A DNA stretch of 64,000 bases from Bacteroidia bacterium (GCA_965216465.1 CBDCFW010000004.1:32001-96000), one strand, 5' to 3'. Shown: positions 1 to 37,257, counted from the first letter of the stretch. Notes: a model not told the origin generated them from the sequence alone. Numbers and translations: made by a program.

Positions 1-2529
1 TTCACAGCAAACAGAACGTCTGAAGGAGGTACATTCGCTGTTGATTCAAACGCCGAAGTGTTGTTGGCGGGAGCTGATAATTTTCCAGCTCTCTTTCTGA
101 CAGTAAGTATAGATACGCACAGTACGGTTACCTATGACGGGTCGGTGGCACAATCAATTCAACCAAGAACTTATGGCAATCTAACTTGCTCGAATGGAAG
201 TCCTAATGCAAAAGGCTTAGCCCGCAGTATTATTGTTCTTGGAGATTTAAGTATCAACACAAATACGACATTAAGCCCAGATACCTCAAGTATTACACTG
301 TATGGTGATTTCACAAACGACGGCAATGTGACACCAGGCACAAGCACGCTTATACTCAATGGTGTCTCGAAAACTTTTACAGGAACGACAACGCTTCATA
401 ACTTGTCTGTGATTGATGGTTCATACTCTGTTTCGTCAGGAACTGTGACTATGGAAGGAAATCTTTACATAGAATCAACCGGCTCATTAAGTTTTGGGAC
501 TAACACCGCTATCTTAGATGGAAATCTGACTAATTATGGTTCGCTAACAAGTAATGGTACAGCGACATTTACAGGAAACAGAGAGCAGCATATTTCACTT
601 CATAGTGCAATCAATAGCACTTCGACAGGTATTATCAATTTCAATGGAACTGTTAAGCCGATTATCAATTCCAGTTCAAGCCCGAATTTCGCAACTGTAA
701 ATATCAATAACACAGCTGGTATTAGTCCTTCGGTACCTTGGTATGTTGCAATTGCAATGAATGTAGATGCAAGTTCAACTTTTGACGGCGGAGCATTGAC
801 TCATACCTTCTATGGGAACTTCGATAATGATGGTGCAGTATACAGTACAGGAAAACTACTGTTTAGTCCAGGGGCACCATATTCTGCAAGTGCGACGGTA
901 TCATTGCTAGGCGATACTTTAAGTGCTGGTGAAGTGGAATTTGGAGGTACTGTACCTTTAACAATAACAGGAAATGCACCGAATTTTGAGACCGTAATTA
1001 TTTCGAATTCTCATTCTTCAGGTATTACGGCACCTAGCTCATGGACAATAGCAAACGATTTGCAAATACAAAGTGGTTCAGAATTTAATGCAGGTTCTGG
1101 CACCAGTCATACTATTGGAGAGAACTTGGTTAATAACGGTACACTTTCAGGTGGCTCTTCATTAATCACCTTTGTTGGTGATACTGTTTCTATTGACGGA
1201 ACAGGAACCAATTCTTTTGAGGATATGAAGGTTGACACCAATACTATTCTGACCTTAAACAACGATATTCAAATATTCTCAGATTTAATACTTGCCGGTG
1301 ATTTAAACAATGCGGACCCAGTTGTAGAATTTTCAGGTTCAGCTCCTGGAACAATTACAGGAATTGCTGGAAACGATACGATTGGAGAATTAAAAACGAC
1401 CAAAGCAAGCGGTGTTGCAACTACCTTAGGTATTCCAATTGTGGTTCAAACTCACCTTAATATGGAATCAGGAATTTTCATTACCGATGCTACCAATATT
1501 ATTGAAATTATGGATGATGCCACATCAACACCTGGCAACGATACAAGTTTTGTTGATGGTCCAGTTCGAAAAGTTGGTAATGATAGGTTTGTATTTCCAC
1601 TTGGAGATACAAGCGAATGGGCTCGTCTGGAGATATCAGCTCCGAGTTTAACGACAGACGCCTTTACAGCGGAATATCATAAAACTTACTATTCAGATAC
1701 AACTACTATGGCAGTGACTCCAATTCCTGTTTTGAATAATGTTAGCCAAATTGAATACTGGACCTGCGATAGAACGGCTGGTACTTCAAATGTTACCGTA
1801 GAACTTTATTGGGAAAATAAGCACAGAAGTGGTATTGATTCGATTAGCTCAGATCTGGTAGTTGCCCGATGGAATGGTTCTGCTTGGGAGAATGCCGGAA
1901 GAACTGAAGCTCAGGGTGATTTGGCGGGGAGCGTTACATCAAATACGGTGTCGTCGTTTAGTCCGTTCACGTTTGGTTCAACTTCCAGTTTAATTAATAA
2001 GCTACCTGTTGAGCTCTTGAGCTTCGATGCAGCATTTAACGAACAGCAAACGGTTGATTTAACCTGGGCTACTGTGTCAGAAGTGAACAACGATTACTTT
2101 GAAATACAGCGAAGCAAAGACGGCAGAGCTTTTGAGTTTGTCGGAACAGTTAATGGAGCAGGTAATAGCTCATCGGAGATTAGCTATGCCTCAGTGGATT
2201 ACGCACCTTATAAGGGCGTTAGCTTTTATCGTTTGAAGCAGCTAGATTTTGATGGGAGCTACGAGTATAGTGATGTAGTAAAAGTTTACTTAGAAGAGCA
2301 GACAAGCCAGCTAAGAATCTATCCCAATCCTGTAAGAGATGTGTTGCGTATTGAGTCGACAATTGATGATGCAAAAGTTGTTGTTTACGACGCCCAAATG
2401 AAAGTAGTAAACTCAAAAAGGTTTGTTTCCGAAACCGATATCGATATGTCTTCTTATCAAGCTGGTATTTACTTAATTTCTTTAGAGTCTTCTAATTTTA
2501 GCAAGATGTACAAAGTGGTAAAACACTAA
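1..2529 (+). CDS. Large secreted T9SS (type A CTD) cargo protein with beta-helix-like repeats; 5'-truncated by the window edge
   Basis: Frame is open from base 1. Gly/Asn/Thr/Ser-rich repeats (e.g. 'GNLTNYGSL', 'GDFTNDGNV'), an 'LPVELLSFDA' Ig-like module and a C-terminal 'IYPNPV...GIYLI...KVVKH' T9SS sorting domain. Confidence 0.85.
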   Translation, partial: FTANRTSEGGTFAVDSNAEVLLAGADNFPALFLTVSIDTHSTVTYDGSVAQSIQPRTYGNLTCSNGSPNAKGLARSIIVLGDLSINTNTTLSPDTSSITLYGDFTNDGNVTPGTSTLILNGVSKTFTGTTTLHNLSVIDGSYSVSSGTVTMEGNLYIESTGSLSFGTNTAILDGNLTNYGSLTSNGTATFTGNREQHISLHSAINSTSTGIINFNGTVKPIINSSSSPNFATVNINNTAGISPSVPWYVAIAMNVDASSTFDGGALTHTFYGNFDNDGAVYSTGKLLFSPGAPYSASATVSLLGDTLSAGEVEFGGTVPLTITGNAPNFETVIISNSHSSGITAPSSWTIANDLQIQSGSEFNAGSGTSHTIGENLVNNGTLSGGSSLITFVGDTVSIDGTGTNSFEDMKVDTNTILTLNNDIQIFSDLILAGDLNNADPVVEFSGSAPGTITGIAGNDTIGELKTTKASGVATTLGIPIVVQTHLNMESGIFITDATNIIEIMDDATSTPGNDTSFVDGPVRKVGNDRFVFPLGDTSEWARLEISAPSLTTDAFTAEYHKTYYSDTTTMAVTPIPVLNNVSQIEYWTCDRTAGTSNVTVELYWENKHRSGIDSISSDLVVARWNGSAWENAGRTEAQGDLAGSVTSNTVSSFSPFTFGSTSSLINKLPVELLSFDAAFNEQQTVDLTWATVSEVNNDYFEIQRSKDGRAFEFVGTVNGAGNSSSEISYASVDYAPYKGVSFYRLKQLDFDGSYEYSDVVKVYLEEQTSQLRIYPNPVRDVLRIESTIDDAKVVVYDAQMKVVNSKRFVSETDIDMSSYQAGIYLISLESSNFSKMYKVVKH

Positions 2530-2563
2530 ACAAAAAGCCGCCAGTTTACACCAGCGGCTTTTG
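2530..2563 (-). terminator. Intrinsic terminator, possibly bidirectional, strongest on the minus strand
   Basis: AAAAGCCGC...GCGGCTTTT inverted repeat. On the minus strand the stem extends with G-U pairs (GCCGCUGG/CUGGCGGC) and is followed by UUUUUGUUU. Confidence 0.8.
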
Positions 2564-2719
2564 CTTCTAAGTAATTAGCTTTATTGCCTGTTAAATATTT
2601 TTGGTCAATACTAAATCTAGAGCATGGCAAAATGCTCAGTTAAATGTTACATGAAAAATTGCGTAGAGTAAGGGAGTGTCCTTATATAGACGTCAATAAT
2701 TTCATCATAAGCTAGTAGT
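2530..2719 (-). ncRNA. Candidate ~190-nt non-coding RNA ('RNA-B')
   Basis: Own promoter (2724-2753) and terminator (2530-2563); no ATG-initiated ORF longer than 8 codons; internal hairpin GAGCAT/ATGCTC (2620-2637); 5' end complementary to the candidate sRNA at 37154-37178. Confidence 0.5.
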
Positions 2720-2723
2720 ACTA

Positions 2724-2753
2724 CAAAGCTAATGAATAATTTCAGTCACGCAA
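2724..2753 (-). promoter_or_regulatory. Bacteroidota primary-sigma promoter (-33 TTG, 19-bp spacer, -7 TAGCTTTG)
   Basis: Minus strand reads TTG (2753-2751), 19 bp, then TAGCTTTG (2731-2724), matching the TTG/TAnnTTTG consensus. Confidence 0.7.
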
Positions 2754-2760
2754 GTAAAAA

Positions 2761-2796
2761 TTCCCAAAAAGAGTGAAAAAATTCCCAAAATGGGAA
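2761..2796. promoter_or_regulatory. Tandem putative transcription-factor sites (TTCCCAAAA twice at 21-bp period; second copy is the palindrome TTCCCA-AAA-TGGGAA)
   Basis: TTCCCAAAA at 2761 and 2782; dyad at 2782-2796; immediately upstream of the -33 element of the minus-strand promoter. Confidence 0.45.
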
Positions 2797-2806
2797 AAAT
2801 TAGAAG

Positions 2807-4027
2807 TTATACGATGATGCTTTCGATTTGGCTTTGACCGAACCAATAGGGGATATCTTCTAAGCCATTTGCAGGTTTTGTGACAATTAAATTGGCTTTC
2901 TTTCCGCGTTGAATACTACCAACTTCGTTCTGCAGCTCTAACGCAAATGCAGCATTGTACGTTAAGGCATTAAAAGCTTCCTCTGGTGTTAGTTTCATCT
3001 GAGAGCATCCTAAAGCAAAAGCTAGACTGAGGTTATGAGAAGGTGCTGAACCTGGATTGAAATCGGAGGCAAGCACTAATGGGATATTTCTGTCGATTAG
3101 TTCCCGGCCAGGAGTGTACGGGATATTCAAGAAAAGCGAGCACAATGGTAAGCCTACTGCAAGAGTTTGGGAATTGGCTAACGCTTTGAAATCTTCATCT
3201 TCCATAACTTCTAAATGATCTACACTTAGAGCATTCATATCAACGGCCAGCTTTACAGCACCAAAACTGCTAAATTGATTCACGTGCACTTTTGGCTTTA
3301 GGCCAAACTTTTGTCCGGCTTCAATTACCCGACGCATGTCATTCAAATCGAAATAGCCCGTTTCGCAAAATATGTCGACATAATCTGCAAGCTTTTCTCC
3401 TGCTATTTCCGGAATCATCTCGTTGCATACAAGATTGATATAACCGTCTTTGTTATTTTTAAACTCAGGAGGAAGAGCATGTGCACCTAAAAAGGTAGAT
3501 TTAATCGGAATAGGAGATAAATGACGCAACACACTAATTACCCGCATCATCTTGAGTTCAGACTCGGTAGAAAGGCCATATCCACTCTTGATTTCAATTG
3601 CACCAGTACCTTGCTTGATTGTTTGTTCAAGTCTCTCTTGAGCGGCTTCAAAAAGCTGTTGTTCGCTCATTTTTCCAAGCTTATCTGCCGAATTCAATAT
3701 TCCTCCACCAGCTTCTGCAATCTCCTGGTAAGACTTTCCATTTAATCGCATCTTGAATTCATTTGCTCGACTCTCGGCGAACACTAAATGTGTATGCGAA
3801 TCAACATACATCGGCATAACCAGACGACCAACACAATTGTGCTCTTGCAGGTCAGTAGTTGGACAATTGTCCATGCTGCCAAAATCTTCAATGAGGCCAT
3901 TACGAATAACTACATAGGCATTATTTATGGTTTCAACCTCGTTTTGTTCTGCCCCTTTCTTAGGTGTTCTCGAGTTTGAGGTAATACCAATAAGTTCTTT
4001 GATATTGGTTAATAAGATGTTACTCAT
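2807..4027 (-). CDS. hutI: Imidazolonepropionase
   Basis: Amidohydrolase motifs 'DSHTHLVF', 'EIKSGYGL', 'TFLGAHA', 'DIFCE', 'ASDFNPGS'. Confidence 0.95.
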   Translation of the reverse strand: MSNILLTNIKELIGITSNSRTPKKGAEQNEVETINNAYVVIRNGLIEDFGSMDNCPTTDLQEHNCVGRLVMPMYVDSHTHLVFAESRANEFKMRLNGKSYQEIAEAGGGILNSADKLGKMSEQQLFEAAQERLEQTIKQGTGAIEIKSGYGLSTESELKMMRVISVLRHLSPIPIKSTFLGAHALPPEFKNNKDGYINLVCNEMIPEIAGEKLADYVDIFCETGYFDLNDMRRVIEAGQKFGLKPKVHVNQFSSFGAVKLAVDMNALSVDHLEVMEDEDFKALANSQTLAVGLPLCSLFLNIPYTPGRELIDRNIPLVLASDFNPGSAPSHNLSLAFALGCSQMKLTPEEAFNALTYNAAFALELQNEVGSIQRGKKANLIVTKPANGLEDIPYWFGQSQIESIIV

Positions 4028-34609: not shown

Positions 34610-34981
34610 TTATGCAGCCACATTGAAATAATTATATAACAGTGATTTTAACTGATTCATATTAGAGGGTTTAGACAAGTAATCGTTTATACCGCCAGCT
34701 TCTAAATCGCTTTCAATTTCGTTGTATGGAAGGCTGGTAAATGCTACTATTGGAGTAGTAGAATCTGACTCACGAATCGCTTTGCTTGTTTCAAATCCGT
34801 TGAGTTTAGGCATAATGATGTCTAATAATATTAAATCGTAGTAATCTTCTTTATAAGCAGATAGAGCAGAAATACCGTCATAAGCTATTGTGTTTTCAAT
34901 GTTAAGGTCGTTTAAGATTTGAGCAATCGAACTTGCTAAAATTTGATTGTCTTCAGCAATCAATACTTTGTAGTTTGACAT
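34610..34981 (-). CDS. Single-domain (CheY-like) response regulator
   Basis: 'VLIAEDN', phosphoacceptor 'LLDIIMPKLNG', 'AFTS', 'YLSKP'; no output domain. Confidence 0.92.
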   Translation of the reverse strand: MSNYKVLIAEDNQILASSIAQILNDLNIENTIAYDGISALSAYKEDYYDLILLDIIMPKLNGFETSKAIRESDSTTPIVAFTSLPYNEIESDLEAGGINDYLSKPSNMNQLKSLLYNYFNVAA

Positions 34982-36747: not shown

Positions 36748-37103
36748 AAGTATTTAACGTGATAGAAGAGCTTAGCTAGTTGAGTAAGTTTACTATTTGC
36801 GGGTCATTCTTCATTTGTAAAGAGCACAAAACCAGCATTTTATAATTTCGTTGGGTATCTTAATTTTTTATGTCATCCCAAAATGAGACAATTTAACTAT
36901 TCCACATTTAGGCTTGCAAAGTGTTGATAATCTTGGAATTTCCTTTAAATCGGGAGAAATTATCTAAATTTATACCAGATATGGCACATTGGAAAAGTGT
37001 TCGAATTCTGCCATAATTCTAAAAATTAGAATAAAGTGTCTATAAATGGGAATATTTTGAGGGGTTAAAAATGTTAATCGACTGATAATCAGCATAGTTA
37101 ACT

Positions 37104-37120
37104 TTGGCATCATATTTTCA
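37104..37120 (+). promoter_or_regulatory. Putative sigma54 (-24/-12) promoter
   Basis: TTGGCATCATATTTTCA with exact -24/-12 spacing (TC instead of GC at -12). Predicted +1 near 37131 coincides with the start of a hairpin. Confidence 0.6.
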
Positions 37121-37129
37121 TATATAGTA

Positions 37130-37230
37130 GTGTACCGCAAGGTACGCATGGTTAATAATTTTCATCATAAGTAGTAGTTTAGTATTTTATCTTTGAAATT
37201 AAGTCCTGGTCTATAAGGCCGGGACTTTTT
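37130..37230 (+). ncRNA. Candidate sigma54-dependent small RNA, ~100 nt ('sRNA-A')
   Basis: 5' hairpin GUGUACC-GCAA-GGUACGC (GNRA loop), A/U-rich middle, 3' terminator. G-U pairs in both hairpins form only on the + strand. Confidence 0.62.
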
Positions 37231-37234
37231 ATTT
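37201..37234 (+). terminator. Intrinsic terminator closing the candidate sRNA
   Basis: AAGUCCUGGUC-UAUAA-GGCCGGGACUU followed by UUUAUUU; about 450 nt downstream of the ilvE stop. Confidence 0.8.
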
Positions 37235-37257
37235 CGTTAAATTTCTACACTAAAAAC

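Follow-up and report, generated by a model that had tools for sequence, protein, structure and literature searches.

The DNA analysed here (the window, 64,000 nt, C4:32001-96000) comes from a 3.23-Mb Bacteroidia genome of six contigs and 38% G+C, designated G000. Near its start, a 277-nt spacer between two convergent genes (2530-2806, designated locus 1) carries 25 nt that recur 34 kb away inside the gene of a small RNA, designated sRNA-A, in such an orientation that a minus-strand transcript of the spacer would be antisense to it. An earlier note, made from the sequence of the window, proposed that locus 1 encodes either a sponge of sRNA-A or a micro-ORF mRNA silenced by it. Two questions follow, namely whether locus 1 has the signals of an independent RNA gene, and whether its complementarity to sRNA-A exceeds what an AT-rich spacer offers by chance.

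A predicted transcription unit downstream of a hutI-like gene

The spacer and its neighbours hold the following features.

Ends at 2529, + strand: gene for a protein with a T9SS C-terminal sorting domain, convergent neighbour of locus 1
2530-2719, minus strand: predicted RNA of ~190 nt, whose longest ATG-started ORF has 8 codons
2533-2562, called on the minus strand only: terminator hairpin of 13 pairs, with an A run on one side and a T run on the other
2682-2708, minus strand: 8-codon ORF MMKLLTSI* (ATGATGAAATTATTGACGTCTATATAA), both ATGs within the predicted duplex
2692-2719, minus strand: predicted transcript 5' end, +1 = A2719, complementary to sRNA-A 37151-37178
2724-2753, minus strand: sigmaA-type promoter-like site of the Bacteroidota -33/-7 kind, with TTG at 2753-2751, a 19-nt spacer and TAGCTTTG at 2731-2724
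2754-2795, minus strand: DR box of 42 nt (TCCCATTTTGGGAATTTTTTCACTCTTTTTGGGAATTTTTAC), in which a 14-nt direct repeat (TTTTGGGAATTTTT) occurs twice, unchanged, at a distance of 21 nt
2807-4027, minus strand: hutI-like amidohydrolase gene, downstream of the RNase Y gene (rny)

The minus-strand signals described in the earlier note are all found: the TTG-19-TAGCTTTG promoter at 2753-2724, the 8-codon ORF at 2708-2682 with its start inside the predicted duplex, and a terminator hairpin at 2562-2533, which the terminator scan calls solely on the minus strand. The promoter motif occurs 90 times in the genome, both strands counted, and ~0.03 occurrences are expected per 277 nt of non-ORF DNA. Because the -7 box of Flavobacterium psychrophilum spans positions -12 to -5 (PMC9723704), we place the predicted +1 at A2719, which is the first base of the match to sRNA-A.

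The predicted 190-nt RNA folds with a minimum free energy of -48.2 kcal/mol (z = -3.85), a value equalled by none of 200 shuffles; the terminator hairpin supplies much of this folding energy, and the 5' segment is partly paired internally in the predicted fold. The hairpin adjoins the end of the + strand gene at 2529 and could serve both this gene and a minus-strand unit. Taken from sequence, an independent minus-strand transcription unit at locus 1 is plausible. Four DNA read runs over 2300-3000 give an identical sequence with zero variants, although these runs may be the assembly's own source.

Rfam contains no family that reaches its gathering score anywhere in the window, and around both loci the matches at E ≤ 10 are at chance level. 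The suggestion that the locus might encode a 6S RNA is refuted, since RF00013 and RF01685 are absent from the matches at E ≤ 10 in 2400-2900. For the Bacteroides sRNA GibS (RF04182), 2528-2635 minus gives 20.5 bits (E = 1.7), short of the gathering score of 115, and this identity is rejected as a chance-level match driven by the terminator.

sRNA-A and its match to locus 1

The genes on either side of sRNA-A encode a class IV aminotransferase and an OmpA-family protein. The locus has the following features.

37010-37051, minus strand: inverted DR-like box, located 78-119 nt ahead of where sRNA-A starts (PWM score 26.4, the fourth best in the genome)
37105-37120, + strand: sigma54-type promoter of sRNA-A, TGGCA-N..-TTTTC
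37130-37235, + strand: sRNA-A, consisting of a 5' hairpin, a nearly invariant core of ~55 nt and a terminator

Judged from comparative sequence, sRNA-A is clearly a real conserved RNA. Its homologues in the genus (n = 13) have the sigma54-type promoter, the 5' hairpin and the terminator in common, and 6 of the 28 predicted pairs show compensatory changes in the 13-sequence alignment. The core is non-coding, because indels occur in its T run. Most relatives have GC at the -12 element of the promoter, where this genome has TC. With up to three mismatches allowed, a 38-nt core pattern is present in 33 of the 151 genomes of the order and, within the organism's family, in 32 of 65 genomes and 11 of 13 genera; it is absent from the sister family (0 of 85 genomes). 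A 34-nt stretch, CATCATAAGTAGTAGTTTAGTATTTTATCTTTGA, is identical across 11 genera of the family and likewise absent from the sister family. Two genomes, G017 and G091, carry two copies, those of G091 in tandem, 329 nt apart. Rfam has no family for sRNA-A.

Two further elements lie in this region. A palindrome, CTGATAATCAG, at 37082-37092, ~13 nt upstream of the sigma54 -24 element, is kept in most of the aligned genus homologues. About 2 kb upstream of sRNA-A, 34610-34981 minus encodes a stand-alone response-regulator receiver protein of 123 aa, the 'response-regulator target' named in the earlier note.

The two loci differ in promoter type as originally described, sigmaA-type at locus 1 and sigma54-type at sRNA-A. 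The match itself is also as reported: apart from two 1-nt indels, 24 positions are identical between 2695-2719 (AATAATTTCATCATAAGCTAGTAGT) and 37154-37178 (AATAATTTTCATCATAAGTAGTAGT) on the + strand, and both copies are intergenic. Smith-Waterman (SW) alignment of locus 1 with sRNA-A gives 26 matches in 29 columns (score 41), and locus 1 can form 24 Watson-Crick pairs with the invariant core, an extended complementarity to a conserved unpaired region; blastn-short finds only the 12-nt exact word (E = 42). We reject locus 1 as a decayed copy of the sRNA-A gene, because no similarity extends beyond the 29 aligned columns. The invariance of the sRNA-A core also means that compensatory changes cannot be scored for the duplex with locus 1.

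When the 60-nt sRNA-A core is aligned with gaps to 64,620 overlapping windows covering both strands of the whole genome, locus 1 is the top non-self match at 41, and the next scores are 39, 37, 36 and 33. Dinucleotide-shuffled cores reach at least 41 somewhere in the genome in 2 of 34 cases. A scan of 107,708 windows that tolerates G-U pairs leaves 9 scoring no lower than locus 1, among them two windows of locus 1 and two of the sRNA-A gene. RNAduplex assigns the pairing of locus 1 with sRNA-A an energy of -32.6 kcal/mol, compared with -32.8, -31.7 and -31.3 at other sites in the genome. The match by itself is thus borderline, only marginally above chance. The expectation that locus 1 would rank at the top of an IntaRNA-style genome scan holds in that it is the best non-self site, but no gap separates it from the background.

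Tests confined to the locus give the following picture. None of 100 shuffles reaches the antisense SW score of 41. RNAcofold predicts 27 pairs between locus 1 and sRNA-A, with one bulge per strand and a net ddG of -17.7 kcal/mol; shuffling the 5' 25 nt of locus 1 yields a mean ddG of -7.9, and the best of 30 such shuffles reaches -16.6.

Co-conservation of locus 1 with sRNA-A is absent in 40 relatives by blastn and in 17 hutI regions. The spacer is matched in 0 of 40 relatives, and a blastn query with the locus 1 region aligns with the hutI coding end alone, in 17 of 24 congeners. Reading the region downstream of hutI in 17 relatives reveals the locus 1 match in none; in all 17 a different convergent gene lies within a few bases of hutI, leaving almost no 3' spacer, and the best core complementarity there scores 13-24, versus 41 here. 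These relatives are species representatives with ~70-77% HutI protein identity and are not mutually independent. In ten other genomes of the genus that match the core motif, the single copy is sRNA-A itself. Of the genomes searched, this one alone contains locus 1, which we read as lineage-specific.

DR-box units and a candidate partner site between mfd and kynU

The DR box of locus 1 lies 11 nt past the hutI stop codon and 2 nt before the -33 TTG. A position weight matrix (PWM) built from family members, for which the 99.999th percentile of scores is -1.8, was run over 6.46 million genome positions and returns three strong DR boxes in addition to the one of 26.4 near sRNA-A.

C6:247229, PWM score 60.3
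Locus 1, PWM score 53.9
C5:239746, PWM score 50.4

The locus 1 and C6 boxes are identical at 36 of 42 positions. The genes upstream of the three boxes (mfd, hutI and an FtsX-like permease gene) are unrelated, and each box is followed by a promoter-like site, a short predicted transcript and a terminator facing a convergent gene. The first five DR boxes found all abut the stop codon of the upstream gene. Locus 1 has the complete layout, with the box by a stop codon, a -33/-7 promoter, a short predicted transcript and a terminator, and carries the most canonical signals of the family, namely identical repeats, a consensus -7 box and a 13-pair terminator. Its DR box and -7 box are 30 nt apart, ~11 nt less than the 40-41 nt of the mfd-linked units. 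A search of genome contigs with the DR pattern gives two records, apparently the G024 and G004 loci.

The DR box is probably the site of a DNA-binding activator, and we take the spacing of its repeats to be reminiscent of AraC- or LytTR-type sites. A sigma54 promoter for the DR units was considered and rejected: the GG-N10-GC spacing, judged by eye in the aligned units, fits G017 alone, and we therefore keep the sigmaA-type reading. The -7 box of locus 1 is the canonical TAnnTTTG. The -7 boxes of three mfd units (L019, L020 and L071) read TACTTTGT, which fits the TAnnTTGY variant as well as it fits a one-off sigmaA box; this variant is described as motif SM5 of F. psychrophilum (PMC9723704).

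The DR family was discovered from the flank of locus 1, which had itself been preselected for its match, and the fair statistic is therefore that of the other family members. A DR unit between mfd and the kynureninase gene kynU is syntenic in ten genomes of the genus, all ten of which also have sRNA-A (in a divergent form in G013). Just behind the -7 box, seven of the ten have (G)AAATACTAAACTACTAC(T)TAT, which is complementary to the segment AUAAGUAGUAGUUUAGUAUUU of the sRNA-A core; the antisense SW scores of these seven are 24-39, reached by at most 2 of 100 shuffles, and same-sense control scores of mfd-linked units are 14-18. The ten units compare as follows (antisense SW score; shuffles reaching it).

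G024: 39; 0 of 100
G000 (C6): 30; 2 of 100
G014: 30; 1 of 100
G017: 28; 2 of 100
G023: 27; 1 of 100
G001: 26; 1 of 100
G004: 24; 0 of 100
G013: 21; 5 of 100
G021: 20; 30 of 100, without complementarity
G007: 17; 50 of 100, without complementarity

Core complementarity is thus absent at the hutI loci of relatives and present in 7 of 10 mfd-linked units. Given these units, the antisense relation of locus 1 to sRNA-A, read from sequence, does not appear to be an isolated coincidence. From the earlier interpretation, a minus-strand unit remains plausible and the antisense relation recurs at the mfd units, while co-conservation of locus 1 does not hold.

The third DR unit of G000 (C5:239746-239945; L055 1501-1695), located after the FtsX-like permease gene, is ~150 nt long, non-coding and terminator-ended. 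Complementarity to sRNA-A is absent from this unit, whose score is equalled or exceeded by 66 of 100 shuffles. Net cofold ddG with sRNA-A is -17.6 kcal/mol for the C6 RNA, nearly the value of locus 1, and -5.0 kcal/mol for C5. By a G-U-tolerant proxy, the C6 site ranks 3,240 of 107,708 windows. The pairing register of locus 1 is shifted relative to that of the mfd units, the overlap being ACUACUA, and the anti-sRNA-A segment of DR units lies 4 to 32 nt from the -7 box.

Coding content varies within the family. The mfd-linked cassettes of G000, G024 and G044 contain an ORF for a hydrophobic peptide of 48-57 aa, homologous among the three; G044, which belongs to another genus, has the same mfd-kynU cassette with two complementarity blocks and the homologous small hydrophobic ORF. 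In G000 this is the C6 unit (C6:247229-247530; L019 1501-1805), whose 48-aa hydrophobic ORF (MKALRKILLVQLFF...) is kept in G024 and G044. A search of 5.8 billion proteins finds one other relative of this small protein. Most mfd-linked units of the genus have no conserved ORF, and tiny unrelated ORFs vary from genome to genome; many of the non-coding versions have a common 3' motif, TTAGTTAAAATAGTTAGGTTA, ahead of the terminator.

A DR-like box at the same offset from sRNA-A as in G000 is present in G008, G024, G001, G044 and G099 (PWM scores 20.6-38.6) and, in a weaker form, in G017 (13.4); at nearby offsets such a box occurs in G077, G113 and G126. One DNA motif therefore joins both kinds of gene, and our inference is that the DR units and sRNA-A may be acted on by a single DNA-binding protein. 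A position 78-119 nt upstream is the usual enhancer-site distance for a sigma54 activator, and G000 encodes four sigma54 activators. A half-box, TCTCATTTTGGGAT, at 36870-36890 minus in the same intergenic region as sRNA-A, resembles the first half of the DR box.

Candidate partner sites also occur in other genera. In L127 (G093:C340:2450-3191), a non-coding RNA lies behind a sigma54-like promoter (TGGCAC-N5-TTGAA). It contains a 32-nt sequence twice in tandem, and both repeats include AAATACTAATATACTACTTA, which is nearly complementary to the sRNA-A core; downstream come ATTATTAACC as a further block and a terminator. From its sequence, the L127 RNA looks like a multi-site decoy. L118 (G077), L122 (G045) and L123 (G047) are signal-peptide ORFs behind sigma54-like promoters, whose first codons are complementary to the sRNA-A core (e.g. 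ATGAAATTATTAAACTACTACTTAA) and which are possible mRNA targets. A family-wide search with the partner-site pattern yields many 3-mismatch matches, and the reversed-pattern control yields about one third as many.

Readings of locus 1 and known systems

We propose that locus 1 (window 2530-2795, minus strand) would be a small, independently promoted RNA gene, a 'DR-box unit', with, in order, an activator-type DR box, a sigmaA-type -33/-7 promoter, a ~190-nt transcript starting at A2719 and an intrinsic terminator. Pairing with the invariant single-stranded core of sRNA-A would involve its 5'-most 25-28 nt, and the gene may have been copied in this lineage from the partner-RNA gene family between mfd and kynU. 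We give about an even chance of being right to the reading of locus 1 as an additional, species-specific copy of a conserved sRNA-A partner RNA, with its 5' end in a duplex with the core. The locus 1 RNA would most likely titrate sRNA-A in the role of a decoy or sponge, or be degraded together with it; the decoy role is the most natural one, because the ORF has only 8 codons.

The opposite direction of regulation would make locus 1 a target, a paralogue of the mfd cassette in which a micro-ORF or decayed small-protein mRNA has its start masked by sRNA-A. Both ATGs of the ORF lie in the predicted duplex, the sRNA-A core contains the anti-start-codon sequence CAU-CAU, and the start regions of locus 1 (ACTACTAGCTTATGATGAAA), C6 (AACTACTGCCGATGAAAG) and G024 (CACTACTTATGAAC) are similar; the homology of the C6, G024 and G044 ORFs and the core-complementary first codons of the signal-peptide ORFs of other genera, with their sigma54-like promoters, point the same way. 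However, M-K-L-L is the only detectable likeness of the 8-codon ORF to the 48-aa peptide, the conserved ORF is missing from most mfd-linked units of the genus, where the tiny ORFs differ, and the small protein has just the one other relative. We consider a target at locus 1, the main rival reading, unlikely, and rate no higher the related proposal that sRNA-A represses translation of the hydrophobic peptide and that the 8-codon ORF is a remnant or a leader peptide. It is similarly improbable, in our estimate, that the 25-nt match is an extreme-value chance event in an AT-rich, lineage-specific spacer and that the complementarity has no function. The shuffled cores that equal the genome-wide score, the close runners-up (39, 37 and 36), the several sites of equal duplex energy and the lack of conservation of locus 1 are all in keeping with chance, as are the two syntenic mfd units (G007 and G021) and the C5 unit that lack complementarity; ATGAAA/TTATT-type starts are presumably common in AT-rich genomes as well. 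What chance does not readily explain is that the best match in the genome falls within 36 nt of one of the three strong DR boxes, on the transcribed strand and beginning at the predicted +1, that independent mfd-linked DR units keep complementarity to the same core, and that a DR-like box is conserved upstream of sRNA-A.

Two other explanations dispense with a separate RNA gene or with RNA pairing. A minus-strand RNA over 2530-2806 could be the 3' UTR of hutI or read-through of the rny-hutI transcript, with no promoter of its own: hutI ends at 2807, the hairpin at 2796-2782 is weak (6 pairs), and 2562-2533 is the sole strong terminator downstream. We regard this as very unlikely, as the spacer has a consensus promoter and a DR box of the kind also found after the unrelated mfd and FtsX-like permease genes, and hutI has nearly no 3' spacer in 17 of 17 relatives read. 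Least probable of all, and in our view hardly credible, is that the shared 25 nt are a DNA-level protein-binding or recombination site. Both copies do have the same orientation on the + strand, but the motif lies within the transcribed invariant core in sRNA-A, its variable distance to the -7 box in DR units (4 to 32 nt) suits an RNA element better than a promoter element, and no dCas12f, TnpB or ECF sigma gene lies beside either locus.

Among known systems, tisB/istR-1 is a trans-encoded type I toxin-antitoxin pair in which the 5' UTR/start region of a hydrophobic peptide gene is complementary to an sRNA. The likeness applies to the mfd-linked paralogue, a small hydrophobic peptide gene with an sRNA-complementary start region. 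Unlike in tisB/istR-1, sRNA-A is on another contig than the mfd-linked peptide gene, and its core is far longer than a single target needs; a hydrophobic ORF is missing from locus 1, as is a conserved ORF from most of the family. A type I toxin-antitoxin system at locus 1 itself is rejected, its ORF having 8 codons and sRNA-A lying 34 kb away.

The closest functional comparisons, drawn by analogy, would be the stand-alone sponges QrrX and RosA. The Qrr sRNAs are sigma54-dependent. According to the QrrX report (PMC9732341), this Vibrio cholerae sponge RNA, found on Hfq by RIL-seq, inactivates the Qrr1-4 sRNAs by base-pairing. The resemblance to QrrX would lie in an independently transcribed small RNA, a conserved sRNA partner and a dedicated DNA-binding activator (PMC9732341); locus 1 differs in that it is known from sequence alone and its activator is a candidate, and also in the related box upstream of sRNA-A itself and in a partner family that includes small-ORF members. 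RosA of Bacillus subtilis is a stand-alone sponge sRNA of RoxS and FsrA, identified by in vivo crosslinking, in a host described as having no known RNA hub protein (PMC8216469); compared with it, locus 1 is unrelated in sequence and phylum, and its case is built from sequence. RNA-guided transcription by dCas12f-sigmaE, in which the guide RNA is genetically linked to dCas12f and an ECF sigma factor (PMC13472631), is rejected, as the neighbours of both loci (aminotransferase, OmpA-family, hutI-like, RNase Y and T9SS protein genes) do not fit. Within a literature coverage that is incomplete, the match listed for a sponge RNA in Bacteroidota concerns Borrelia burgdorferi instead.

A wider circuit can be put forward tentatively, as a possibility rather than an expectation. 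To our knowledge, Bacteroidota lack Hfq, and RNA-based regulation in the phylum is poorly understood. In such a family-wide circuit, one DR-box regulator would control both an invariant sigma54-dependent sRNA and sigmaA-promoted anti-sRNAs, with lineage-specific gains of decoys such as locus 1; at sRNA-A the regulator would work at UAS-like range, and at the partner units from a position beside the -33 element. The case of locus 1 illustrates how a locus-specific match that looks like chance can acquire meaning through its paralogous context. If the pairing of locus 1 with sRNA-A is real, the DR box would offer a candidate operator motif with which to search for its regulator, an sRNA spread across the family, with 34 invariant nt in its core and no Rfam entry, would have come to light, and Bacteroidota would gain a testable system of an sRNA and its partner RNAs.
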